Shown here: piece after piece, positions 1,922 to 59,687 of the stretch | Numbering within the stretch: the first letter of the stretch is position 1 | Layout: each line of letters starts with the position of its first letter | Assembly (NCBI GenBank): GCA_903857825.1 | Contig: CAIOGI010000003.1 | Location: forward strand, 1-60,442 | DNA: 60,442 nt | Direction: 5' to 3' | Source: Candidatus Tayloriibacteriota bacterium | Lineage (GTDB): Bacteria; Patescibacteriota; Minisyncoccia; Phycocordibacterales; PALSA-1337 | Position numbers and translations under genes: made by a program | The notes under the pieces: generated by a model | Told to the model about the DNA's origin: nothing | Seen by the model: the letters and a program-made list of their open reading frames with translations, nothing else | Databases searched by the model: none

Positions 1922-2058
1922 AAAAATTGAGACTCGGCACGGTGAGGAGGTCCTACTTTTTTGAACTTGTGAAAAAAAGAGGAGCCTCCGAGCGCGACAT
2001 TGTTTGATTTATCAAACAAGAAGTACTCCTGTGGTGCAAGTCGACGAGTCCAATTTTT
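1922..2058 (+). repeat. Type-A nested-hairpin intergenic element, copy 1 (inner module in orientation I)
   Basis: AAAATTGAGACTCG...CGAGTCCAATTTT outer stem encloses long hairpin H1 (GGAGGTCCTACTTTTTT/AAAAAAAGAGGAGCCTCC) and a 46-nt module (1992-2037) with palindrome TTGTTTGAT/ATCAAACAA. It is near-identical to the reverse complement of 53737-53871. Confidence 0.85.
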
Positions 2059-2063
2059 CTTAT

Positions 2064-2309
2064 GTTACGACTTATTTCACATGAGCTGTACTCAGCGAAT
2101 TTGTGAAATAGAAGTGCCCTTGTGGTACGACCTAAATTTCTTACGAGCAAAGCGAGTGTAGAAATTGGAAGTACTCTTTTGTGGTACGACTTATTTCACA
2201 TGAGCTGTACTCAGCGAATTTGTGAAATAGAAGTACCCTTTTGTGGTACGACTTATTTCACATGAGCTGTACTCAGCGAATTTGTGAAATAGAAGTACCC
2301 TTGTGGTAC
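2064..2309 (+). repeat. Tandem array of four type-B hairpin units (59-64 nt each)
   Basis: Units start at 2064, 2125, 2184 and 2246. Each has the form GTACGAC-[hairpin]-AGAAGTACCCTTGTG. Units 1, 3 and 4 carry the same hairpin (ACTTATTTCACA/TGTGAAATAGAAGT). Unit 2 carries a different but still self-complementary one (TAAATTTCT/AGAAATTGG). The unit ends resemble the ends of the 46-nt inner module of type-A elements. Confidence 0.85.
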
Positions 2310-17933: not shown

Positions 17934-17955
17934 TTAACCCAAAGTCATATTTTGT

Positions 17956-17991
17956 AAAATTGGACTCCCTCACCGCGTCGAGTCCAATTTT
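17956..17991 (-). repeat. Minimal type-A element (outer stem plus loop only), copy 5
   Basis: Read on the minus strand it is TAG-T-AAAATTGGACTC-GACGCGGTGAGG-GAGTCCAATTTT. This gives a perfect 12-bp stem. The loop equals the 5' flank of the full-length copies, and the element starts 1 nt after the stop of 17993..19909. Confidence 0.8.
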
Positions 17992-17992
17992 A

Positions 17993-19909: not shown

Positions 19910-19937
19910 AAATATAGATCTTTATAAGAATAATATT

Positions 19938-19999
19938 ACCACAAGGGCACTTCTATTTCACTATTCGCTGTGTACAGCTCAGGTGAAATAAGTCGTACC
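19938..19999 (-). repeat. Solitary type-B hairpin unit
   Basis: The minus-strand reading GGTACGACTTATTTCACCTGAGCTGTACACAGCGAATAGTGAAATAGAAGTGCCCTTGTGGT differs at a handful of positions from unit 1 of the 2064-2309 array. It lies 28 nt upstream of the start of 17993..19909, in the same sense. Confidence 0.8.
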
Positions 20000-26733: not shown

Positions 26734-26869
26734 AAAATTGAGACTCGACGCGGTGAGGAGGTCCTACTTTTTTTGAACTTGTGAAAAAAAGAGGAGCCTC
26801 CGAGCACCACAGGGGTACTAGTAGTTTGCTAAAGCAAACTATGTCGCGCAAGCAAGCGAGTCCAATTTT
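26734..26869 (+). repeat. Type-A nested-hairpin element, copy 2 (inner module in orientation II)
   Basis: The 5' 70 nt are the same as copy 1. The 46-nt module (26804-26849) is the reverse complement of the copy-1 module in its ends, with a different compensated hairpin (TAGTTTGCT/AGCAAACTA). The element starts 1 nt after the mraY TAG. Confidence 0.85.
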
Positions 26870-35307: not shown

Positions 35308-35310
35308 TTG

Positions 35311-35383
35311 TGCGCCCGGAGGGACTCGAACCCACGGCCAATCGAGTATAAGTCGACCGCTCTACCAACTGAGCTACGGGCGC
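35311..35383 (-). tRNA. tRNA-Ile, anticodon UAU
   Basis: 73-nt cloverleaf. Acceptor GCGCCCG/CGGGCGC, D arm GCTC-AGTTGGTA-GAGC, anticodon arm GTCGA-CTTATAC-TCGAT, variable loop TGGCC, T arm GTGGG-TTCGAGT-CCCTC (one U-U mismatch), discriminator A. No encoded CCA. The body resembles bacterial tRNA-Ile2. Confidence 0.8.
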
Positions 35384-35403: not shown

Positions 35404-36081
35404 TTAGTTTTTTCTCAACATTACAGAATCTTTAATATATTTTAAAGAGGAAATTATTTTATTGTATAGAACCATATCATATACCATAAGTGAACATGTT
35501 CCATGACCAAATCCACTTTTATAAGTGATATCAGTGAGATTTGATTTCTTTATATATGGTTTTTTAAAATTTTCTTTTGAAATCTTTAATAAATTTGACC
35601 AAAATTCTACTTCTTCTTCAATATCCATATCCTTATACAACTGCAACCTTACGAATATTTTGTCTTTTGGCACCTTAATTGTTATTAAAAATTTAAGAAA
35701 AAATAATACCATTGCAGGATCAGTATTAGAAAGTACAACCGAACTACTTGCTACCTTAGTTCCTTCACCCCAATATAGAAACAAACCACATAATTTTATC
35801 TCTCGCTCTGATAACCTACCAATATCTCTTCCAACTTCATTATAGACATTTTCCAATTTTTTCCTTTTATTATTTTCTTTAGTATTTCTACATTTTTCTA
35901 TTCTTATTTGACTATTATCTCTCAATTCCCTAATTTTCTCATTAGACAAAGGAAAAAAATGCAACCACTTGCTGAGAGTGCTTTTACTTACTTTTACCTC
36001 ATTTCTTATCTGACTATAACTCTTACCTTCTAATCTTAATTTTATTGCTTTTTCTTTTTCTAATTTCTTTGACATCAACAA
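35404..36081 (-). CDS. HTH plus LAGLIDADG-like protein (free-standing homing-endonuclease-like)
   Basis: N-terminal resolvase-type HTH GKSYSQIRNEVKVSKSTLSKWL. The central CGLFLYWGEGTK resembles a LAGLIDADG motif. Confidence 0.4.
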   Translation of the reverse strand: MLMSKKLEKEKAIKLRLEGKSYSQIRNEVKVSKSTLSKWLHFFPLSNEKIRELRDNSQIRIEKCRNTKENNKRKKLENVYNEVGRDIGRLSEREIKLCGLFLYWGEGTKVASSSVVLSNTDPAMVLFFLKFLITIKVPKDKIFVRLQLYKDMDIEEEVEFWSNLLKISKENFKKPYIKKSNLTDITYKSGFGHGTCSLMVYDMVLYNKIISSLKYIKDSVMLRKN

Positions 36082-38646: not shown

Positions 38647-39060
38647 GGGGATGAAAGGCCTCGACAGTTGAGGTACTTCATATTGTGCATTGTAGAGCTC
38701 CATTGTCTCTTAAAACCGATGGAAACTCGTAACTGCTAATTCAGCAATTACAAAGGTAAAGGCTGCTGTGTCTCCATATTTTGGATCACACAACTTTACT
38801 TTCGCTCTAGCTACGGCTTAAGCGACGTCTCACATCATGCGTTCTGAATGGTGTTGAGGTGATATAAACATGAACTAGAATTATATTCGCTTCCCTGCTT
38901 ATAATTCGAAACCTTGGGAATCGCCTACATATATTTTGTTTACTTTATAGTATGTAAGTTAAAAGAGTAGGTTGAAAGATCTGCTCGCTAAAGTTTTCTA
39001 TACAATGTAGAAGCAATATAAGATTTCATCTGCACGGCGGTTCGATTCCGCCCATCTCCA
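38647..39060 (+). ncRNA. ssrA: tmRNA
   Basis: The 5' GGGGAUG pairs with the 3' CAUCUCC, including G3-U. T-arm GGUUCGAUUCCGCC. Tag reading frame GCU AAU ... GCU CUA GCU ACG GCU UAA (38735-38821). Located after smpB. Confidence 0.85.
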
Positions 39061-39189
39061 CAATATTGAGACATGTAATATTCCTTGCCTAATATTCTAA
39101 CAAGTTGTAAGCTAAATGTAGCTAGAAAACTAATCCTGTACTAAATTCGCCTGTTGCGAATCTGGTATTGGAGAATAATCGAAAAATCT

Positions 39190-53736: not shown

Positions 53737-53871
53737 AAAATTGGATTCGTCGACTTGCACCACAGGGGTACTTCTTGTTTGATAAATCAAACAATGTCGC
53801 GCTCGGAGGCTCCTCTTTTTTTCACAAGTTCAAAAAAGTAGGACCTCCTCACCGTGCCGAATCTCAATTTT
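53737..53871 (-). repeat. Type-A nested-hairpin element, copy 3 (orientation I)
   Basis: Reverse complement of copy 1 with a few substitutions. These include a compensated pair in the outer stem (GATTCG/CGAATC versus GACTCG/CGAGTC). Confidence 0.85.
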
Positions 53872-53892
53872 GTTATACAGATGTACTTTGTC

Positions 53893-54029
53893 GGCTATAA
53901 GAGTATCAAGCCTAGTAAAATTACTAGGTGGGTGATCTCAATGCTAATACCAAGGTACAGCATAATTTGAAGTGCGAAACTTCGTCGATCTCCCAGTTAA
54001 AAAGTTATAGATTTAATACTCTTATAACC
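53893..54029 (-). ncRNA. Candidate structured small RNA (four or more helices), family unknown
   Basis: A 14-bp closing stem (54029-54016 with 53906-53893) encloses GGGAGATC/GATCACCC, GAAGT/ACTTC, TGCT/AGCA and CCTAGTA/TACTAGG helices. G-U pairs exist only on the minus strand. A TATAAT box (54041-54036) ends 6 nt before the first stem base. A type-A element follows 22 nt downstream. Confidence 0.45.
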
Positions 54030-54035
54030 TATTCA

Positions 54036-54041
54036 ATTATA
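54036..54041 (-). promoter_or_regulatory. -10 box (TATAAT) positioned for a transcript starting at the sRNA candidate's closing stem
   Basis: The minus strand reads TATAAT-tgaata-GGTTATAAGAGTAT. There is only a weak TTGTAT -35 box 16 nt upstream. Confidence 0.35.
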
Positions 54042-54083
54042 TTACTATGTCAGACGAATACAATAGCAAAAACACTTCAGACA

Positions 54084-59547: not shown

Positions 59548-59687
59548 AAAATTGAGGCTCGCCTGCTTGCGCGACATAGTTTGCTTTAGCAAACTACTAG
59601 TACCCTTGTGGTGCTCGGGAGCACTTTATTTTTATACGCATGCTAGTAAAAATAAAGTCCCCCCTCACCGCGTCGAGTCTCAATTTT
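59548..59687 (-). repeat. Type-A nested-hairpin element, copy 4 (orientation II, alternative H1 hairpin)
   Basis: The minus strand reads TAAAATTGAGACTCGACGCGGTGAGG..., and its first TAA is the adk stop codon. H1 is replaced by GGGGGGACTTTATTTTTA/TAAAAATAAAGTGCTCCC. The H2 module is identical to copy 2. Confidence 0.85.

Follow-up and report, generated by a model that had tools for sequence, protein, structure and literature searches.

The 60,442-nt stretch of DNA analysed here (the window) contains four collinear elements of about 135-140 nt in which the same slot is occupied by a 46-nt module in two opposite orientations, as was apparent both from direct reading and from repeat finding. The question raised by this locus is whether the module is a segment that flips or a small palindromic unit that was inserted either way round, and both explanations had been offered in an earlier note, in which the four elements were recognised. 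Our analysis indicates that the arrangement is probably a three-layer nest resembling the REP/BIME repeats, in which a unit was inserted in either direction beside a GCGC tetramer within a larger scaffold, and in which the two orientations (A and B) were acquired separately.

The closest relatives of the window proteins are encoded in Patescibacteria MAGs, part of which are labelled Candidatus Taylorbacteria. The window has a low GC content (~35%), carries a set of housekeeping genes (RNase J, mraY, mur ligases, ndk, adk-map, ftsH, smpB, tmRNA and tRNA-Ile(TAT)) and is matched at 100% identity by contigs of other samples; sister genomes with 87-92% protein identity were used for the comparison of loci. 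The tRNA-Ile gene (35310-35383, minus strand) has the anticodon TAT, uncommon in bacteria, and its neighbour is a 225-aa ORF with a weak match to HTH_23 (35404-36081). The tmRNA gene (38647-39063, plus strand), adjoining smpB, encodes a long tag peptide of 28 residues, ANSAITKVKAAVSPYFGSHNFTFALATA. In the 92% sister, the region L033 6003-7366 contains a reverse transcriptase and a bAvd gene, the signature of a diversity-generating retroelement, beside a YafQ/RelB pair; the retroelement pair is absent from the corresponding place in the window.

The first scaffold (c1; 1923-2057, plus strand; 56.9 bits with the covariance model) begins 15 nt past the RNase J stop codon and is of type I, with the 4-mer GCAC in its 5' part (1937-1940) and the tetramer TCGA in its 3' part (2041-2044). 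Its module (1992-2037, plus strand) is in orientation A and consists of GCGC (1992-1995) and a 42-nt unit (1996-2037), composed of GACA, a hairpin (TTGTTTGAT/ATCAAACAA), GAA and a small hairpin GTACT-CCTGT-GGTGC. The second scaffold (c2; 26734-26869, plus strand) begins 1 nt past the mraY stop codon and is of type II (ACGC at 26748-26751, 3' tetramer CAAG). Its module (26804-26849, minus strand) is in orientation B, with a bottom-strand 42-nt unit (26804-26845; hairpin TAGTTTGCT/AGCAAACTA) placed 3' of GCGC (26846-26849). The third scaffold (c3; 53737-53871, minus strand; type I, GCAC at 53854-53857) carries its module (53757-53802) in orientation A and is 97.8% identical to c1, the two being duplicates of a whole element, module included. 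The fourth (c4; 59548-59687, minus strand; type II, ACGC at 59670-59673) lies between adk and map, differs in the long hairpin of the scaffold (hairpin 1) and holds a module (59569-59614) in orientation B, with the unit on the plus strand at 59573-59614.

The 46-nt slot reads GCGCGACA-hairpin-GAAGTACYCCTGTGGTGC in c1 and c3, and GCACCACARGGGTACT-hairpin-TGTCGCGC, i.e., the same ends reverse-complemented, in c2 and c4; the repeat finder reported the corresponding pair 26804-26849 and 53757-53802 at 87% identity on opposite element strands (family D12). The flank before the slot, described earlier as a constant CCTCCGA, is constant in all four copies as CCGA, but not in the longer form (c4 reads GCTCCCGA). 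Scaffold motifs occur far more often than expected by chance, with 3 matches against 0.05 expected and, for CGGTGAGG, 5 against 0.3. Orientation A and the reverse complement of B are identical at 40 of the 46 positions, and the six differences include two compensated stem pairs and a changed linker. Two further observations of the earlier note hold: the hairpin versions differ between the states, each remaining self-complementary, and the module termini are imperfect inverted repeats (5/7 match). Since the unit variants agree at only 40/46 positions and stand in opposite orientation, while c1 and c2 are separated in hairpin 1 by only one T indel, the unit has a history different from that of the scaffold. 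The B module of c4 is identical (46/46) to that of locus L036 in the sister genome, in which both hairpin 1 and the scaffold subtype are different.

The scaffold itself is a rod-shaped palindromic repeat of about 96 nt present in several Patescibacteria genomes. Its helices are (i) a 13-bp outer stem (AAAATTG(A)GACTCG / CGAGTCCAATTTT), (ii) a short inner helix and (iii) the long hairpin 1, of variable sequence and conserved pairing. Scaffolds were collected by pattern scans of genome and metagenome collections, and 282 kb of the loci retrieved were then searched with a covariance model, giving 17 full scaffolds: c1-c4 of the window, L036:5596-5729, L027:18990-19087 and one each in L001, L002, L004, L005, L009-L013, L015 and L016 (the pattern matches L006 and L014 are due to chance and were left out of the set). 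Twelve of them come from more distant genomes, namely a Hainich groundwater MAG, JGI sample Ga0194060 and an 81% sister genome. A truncated scaffold (c5; 17953-17992, minus strand; 22.4 bits) comprises only the outer stem and ACGCGGTGAGG; it retains ACGC, has no module and is absent in sister L035. It looks like a full copy that has lost the stretch between two direct repeats of GAGTCC (at the start of hairpin 1 and in the 3' outer stem), which suggests a route by which scaffold elements decay.

For the structure test, 15 scaffolds were aligned with the modules cut out, and shuffled and slid controls were run. In the consensus rod, formed by the outer stem, the inner helix and the base of hairpin 1, 98.5% of cells were paired and 7 pairs showed double changes, with compensatory changes in all three helices; none of 500 shuffles attained the observed values, and slid controls gave at most 48% pairing. 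An invariant U-G wobble can pair only on that strand which runs in the direction of the upstream gene. In most copies, the window's five included, the scaffold starts 0-17 nt past a co-directional stop codon, with larger distances for c3 (212 nt) and L001 (102 nt); at least one scaffold, L012, does not share the direction of the gene before it. Neither the scaffold nor the unit matched a family of Rfam 15 at the gathering threshold, and both were also unmatched when the element regions and three related loci were compared with Rfam up to E=10. A terminator scanner made no scaffold call; the scaffold loops exceed its 3-8-nt limit.

Two scaffold subtypes, GCAC...TCGA and ACGC...CAAG, were distinguished, and both are old. 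The 5' 4-mer had earlier been taken to co-vary with module orientation and to pair with the module end. Within the window GCAC and ACGC do match orientation in 4/4 copies, but the 4-mer is not adjacent to the module, lying about 50 nt upstream of it (1937-1940 in c1) and beyond another hairpin. The co-variation broke at the first added module-bearing copy, as L036 combines GCAC/TCGA with orientation B, and the supposed pairing is contradicted by module-less copies, which carry either 4-mer (GCAC in L001, ACGC in the others). With c1 and c3 being duplicates, the match in the window amounts to effectively three cases, and a perfect 2+2 split would arise by chance once in three times even with four independent copies; it has no statistical weight and is a within-window coincidence. 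The 4-mer goes with the 3' tetramer of the scaffold, GCAC with TCGA and ACGC with CAAG (CAGG in c4), and does so in module-less copies too (GCAC...TCGA in L001, ACGC...CAAG in eleven others). In the consensus fold its third base (alignment column 17) is partnered by column 83, where the 3' tetramer starts, and this one compensatory pair is G-C in 12 copies and A-U in the other 3. The 4-mer is a marker of scaffold subtype, unrelated to the module.

Module-less scaffolds (n=12; ~89-98 nt) have the order AAAATTGAGACTCG - ACGC/GCAC - GGTGAGG - hairpin 1 - CCGA - ACGC - AAG - CAAG/TCGA - CGAGTCCAATTTT, and the slot is empty (CCGA-ACGC-AAG) in 12/12 non-redundant full scaffolds from the more distant genomes. 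All five module-bearing scaffolds belong either to the window species or to its ~90% sister. Because the empty slot is common and represents the outgroup state, and because modules are confined to these two close relatives, the module is a gain. All occupied slots contain GCGC and all empty ones ACGC, so an additional A-to-G change or a clade-specific ancestral G must be assumed; the set holds no full-length empty scaffold from the window's own species.

Comparison of orthologous loci, proposed in the earlier note, placed the scaffold at a second level of presence and absence, as none of c1-c4 was present at the corresponding positions in sister genomes: (i) the adk-map gap (c4) is 152 nt in the window and 1 nt in L022 and L024 (90% and 87% Adk identity); (ii) the distance from mraY to the next gene (c2) is 152 nt compared with 20 and 39 nt in sisters; (iii) the ndk-DUF2238 spacer (c3) can be aligned in L022 and L027 except that exactly c3 is missing (junction CTGTA/ATGCAGGTG); and (iv) the RNase J-MFS spacer (c1 and a tandem array described below) is 412 nt in the window, while sisters have 28 nt or a different gene. 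Since c1-c4 are missing at the same loci of sisters, the scaffold is itself a present/absent, MITE-like insert. It has terminal inverted repeats of 13-14 bp, 17 full copies and presence/absence between relatives, and agrees with a MITE in all respects save a demonstrable target duplication: the empty/filled comparison for c3, with diverged flanks, allows TA or TGTA, c2 and c4 show no definite duplication, and none is established. Nor is one established for the unit, as GCGC and GTGC are mismatched always at the same position and hence are part of the element.

Reduced forms of the scaffold were observed at the adk-map junction of two relatives. In the 81% sister (L027 10584-10616) the junction holds a 33-nt mini-hairpin consisting of the outer stem only. 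In the 78% sister (L030 10586-10605) it holds only the scaffold 3' end, fused to the adk reading frame and forming the last codons of a longer Adk (205 vs 194 aa). As relatives hold such reduced forms, this site was occupied repeatedly or for a long time, with subsequent decay. Between ndk and c3, a ~190-nt non-coding block (53875-54075, minus strand) is preserved almost base for base in L022 and L027, and a weak match to 6S RNA (53887-54035; 18.4 bits, E 0.11), below the gathering score, falls within it. Judged by sequence, this block could represent a small RNA gene, either a diverged relative of 6S or one of another kind, just after which c3 was inserted.

The module is composed of the palindromic tetramer GCGC and a 42-nt unit, which in turn consists of GACA, a hairpin of 8-9 bp, a linker of 3 nt and a small hairpin GTACC-N5-GGTGC. 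Units of this kind also occur outside scaffolds, and every unit follows a common plan in its predicted folds: GAC(A), a variable hairpin, a 3-nt linker and a small hairpin GTRCY-N5-7-GGTRC. Each unit is predicted to form two hairpins, of which that on the 5' side begins 3-4 nt inside the unit and that on the 3' side is terminal. Four longer units (59-62 nt) form a tandem array next to c1 (2069-2309, plus strand; period 62, 4.2 copies), each built of GAC, a long hairpin and GAAGTRCYC(T)nGTGGTAC, the second with a different hairpin; they are preceded by GTAC, and the first one by TTAC. A single long unit (19936-19999, minus strand), reading GGTAC/GAC, hairpin, GAAGTGCCCTTGTGGTAA, lies outside any scaffold and is kept at the same locus in the sister (L035 4868-4929, 95% identity). 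The 60 kb of the window contain 9 units in total, the one 4-unit array included; all of them lie between genes, both strands are used, and the strand of the unit is unrelated to GC skew or transcription direction.

On its own strand, the unit is preceded by GCGC in 5/11, GTAC in 5/11 and TTAC in 1/11 cases (window and sister units together). The head-to-tail arrays can be explained by the unit ending in GTAC, which recreates the preferred neighbour. Short units occupy only the four scaffold slots among the 55 GCGC sites of the window (4/55), which points to recognition beyond the tetramer or to amplification after capture. The copy number in the array differs between strains: a contig whose RNase J and MFS proteins are identical has a spacer of 350 nt instead of 412 nt, corresponding to one 62-nt unit fewer. 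A CRISPR-like nature of the region 2069-2309 was considered and rejected: its repeat measures only 21 nt, one hairpin recurs in three of the four segments between repeats, and cas genes are lacking. In viral contigs the scaffold pattern had 0 matches, while the 3' motif of the unit had 1 and 19, with the unit architecture in none of them on inspection. The sequence AGTACCCTTGTGGTRC occurs in the loop or upper stem of terminator-like hairpins of two unrelated viral contigs (L037 2798-2813 and L049 5595-5610), probably by chance.

These observations bear out the second explanation of the earlier note, a small palindromic unit that inserts in either direction, by way of the empty slots, the units outside scaffolds and the same B variant in unlike scaffolds. 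As GCGC is its own reverse complement, a unit that always joins its 3' side could land on either strand at one site; GCGC followed by the unit (A) and the reverse-complemented unit followed by GCGC (B) agree base for base with both arrangements observed. The junction is ambiguous by 2 nt, as unit and slot both end in GC. The nest would comprise (i) the ~96-nt scaffold, dispersed at the 3' ends of genes in a MITE-like manner, and (ii) a separate 42-nt unit, inserted in the lineage of the window and its closest sister beside a tetramer in the 3' internal loop of the scaffold, here GCGC. A and B are two sequence variants, which would have been gained separately and would not be one flipping segment. 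The likeliest route would be strand-specific insertion of single-stranded DNA 3' of a GYRC tetranucleotide, carried out by a trans-acting HUH/Y1 enzyme (IS200/IS605- or RAYT-like) putatively encoded elsewhere in the genome; Pfam searches of the ~50 ORFs of the 60-kb window gave no HUH/Y1, RAYT or other transposase, the weak HTH_23 match being all that turned up. The claim of either orientation amounts to one A event against up to three B events, because c1 and c3 are duplicates, and recombinational exchange of segments between scaffold copies could mimic independent insertions.

A history with a single ancient insertion, followed by a one-off inversion through replication template switching at the quasi-palindrome, divergence and spread by duplication or recombination, appears unlikely. 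It would accommodate c1 and c3, which show that whole scaffolds duplicate together with the module, and the mosaic make-up of scaffolds with respect to subtype, hairpin 1 and module, a pattern that could arise by recombination between copies. However, the unit variants are 13% apart, compared with a single indel in hairpin 1 of c1 and c2, the unit family exists without scaffolds, and direct reading found no scaffold inverted repeats directly flanking the slot that could drive a loop inversion.

Less likely still is a functional role of the module, either as a dispensable domain of a structured RNA or as a DNA palindrome bound by a protein, in which selection would keep it irrespective of its orientation. 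The candidate 15-bp site GTACC-N5-GGTRC is nearly the same on both strands, the central hairpin of the unit and the outer stem of the scaffold are predicted to form in both orientations, and the scaffold combines RNA-like covariation and U-G wobble pairing on the upstream-gene strand with a start 0-17 nt after a co-directional stop codon in most copies. Nevertheless, most scaffolds lack the module, units also form arrays away from scaffolds, and no Rfam family was matched. Selection of this kind would account for retention and not for origin, and is thus compatible with insertion.

A programmed invertible segment, i.e., a 46-bp module flipped by a site-specific recombinase between imperfect terminal repeats for phase variation, is very improbable: one slot does hold both orientations, the module ends are 5/7 inverted repeats and a flipped GCGC plus unit would, GCGC being palindromic, give the B arrangement exactly, but the two states are not reverse complements (40/46, with two compensated stem pairs among the six differences), each locus has one orientation among independent assemblies, module-less scaffolds are the common state, and the search by Pfam among the ~50 window ORFs for the enzymes that the earlier note had named, with tyrosine recombinases added, found no invertase, Piv, RAYT or tyrosine recombinase. 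Fixed orientation was seen in assemblies of three other samples, 100% identical to the window over c3 and c4 (L019), c1 (L020) and c2 (L057), which leaves room for rare minority forms. The Hin/Gin/Fim systems use segments and sites far larger than 46 bp with 7-nt imperfect repeats.

The preferred reading, insertion in either direction, turns an apparently tiny DNA switch into a nested mosaic of palindromic repeats and removes a false inference of base pairing. Once transcribed, the structures may help to form or stabilise mRNA 3' ends, and besides being MITE-like the scaffold could represent a new structured RNA. There is some chance, albeit a small one, that the scaffold is an undescribed constrained structured RNA of Paceibacteria-type Patescibacteria (e.g., an mRNA 3'-end or processing element) and that a tetramer of its internal loop has become the favoured target for single-strand hairpin transposons of a new family, moved by an unrecognised HUH-type enzyme in ~1-Mb genomes thought poor in mobile elements. 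On the preferred reading, the locus consists of ordinary "junk-like" mosaic repeats in a groundwater bacterium that has not been cultivated; it is not a genetic switch and opens no new kind of biology. It is apparently the first record of REP/BIME-like and MITE-like repeats in a lineage of Patescibacteria (CPR) with a very small genome; a full-text literature search found no description of such repeats in Patescibacteria. The repeat families are a concrete place to seek the enzyme that moves such repeats in CPR bacteria and, given the strain-dependent length of the array, might be useful for telling strains apart.

Among known systems, Hin/Gin, fim and the shufflon share with this locus a segment present in two orientations between fixed flanks. 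They differ in that the states here are not exact reverse complements, the segment is 46 bp with 5/7 repeats, no recombinase is encoded nearby in the window and orientation is fixed per locus across assemblies. The array at 2069-2309 is comparable with the dRS3 mosaics among the intergenic elements of Neisseria, in which, according to a passage of PMC3733652, dRS3 repeats alternate with RS segments: a ~21-nt repeat (GAAGTACCCTTGTGGTACGAC) alternates with segments of 36-39 nt. In contrast to that system, the array segments are themselves hairpins, three of the four near-identical, and there is no sequence relation to dRS3.

Elements of the IS200/IS605 type insert strand-specifically on one side of a specific tetranucleotide. 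The unit, too, would attach to a single side of a defined tetranucleotide, apparently leaving the target unduplicated, and its ends are predicted hairpins; strand-specific insertion at a palindromic target would yield both orientations. Unlike in these elements, no TnpA gene was found in the window, and the 3' hairpin of the unit reaches the very end instead of being subterminal. REP hairpins, too, have been noted to resemble IS200/605 ends (in a part of PMC3333891).

The closest comparison is that with the REP/BIME repeats of Enterobacteria and Pseudomonas, which are associated with RAYT (Y1) transposases and are characterised in sections of PMC2817692 and PMC3733652 as short extragenic hairpin repeats with many copies in both orientations, which form mosaic arrays with conserved linkers and lie mostly downstream of genes; in BIMEs, as outlined in the former source, REP units alternate in orientation between conserved linkers. 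The units of the window are similarly extragenic, present in many copies (9 in 60 kb), in both orientations and clustered. They differ in having 42-62 nt and two hairpins, whereas classic REPs have 20-40 nt, in the host, which belongs to Patescibacteria, and in that no RAYT was found among the window ORFs. REPs are defined, in the relevant passage of PMC3733652, by an unpaired 5' tag GTAG or CGTC (variants TGTC and CCTC) beside the stem. Membership in the CGTC-tagged group was considered on account of a TGTC beside the stem and rejected, as each unit has GAC(A) at its start and GGTRC at its end, and TGTC is present only at the 3' end, on the opposite strand.

The nesting as such also has a counterpart, as the same source (Di Nocera et al. 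2013, PMC3733652) mentions, in the part that deals with them, REPs nested in larger conserved palindromes: GTAG-15 of Anabaena variabilis, CGTC-1 of Halothiobacillus neapolitanus and GTAG-23 of Thermomicrobium roseum. Here, too, a small palindrome occupies a fixed internal position of a larger repeated palindrome, but the host palindrome is a 96-nt structured element found in several genomes, mostly in its empty form, and the guest is a single unit in either orientation and not a dimer. The unit is best described as REP-like in its behaviour and not as a member of the REP family; the repeat family is new and its host unusual, while the kind of biology that it represents is already known.
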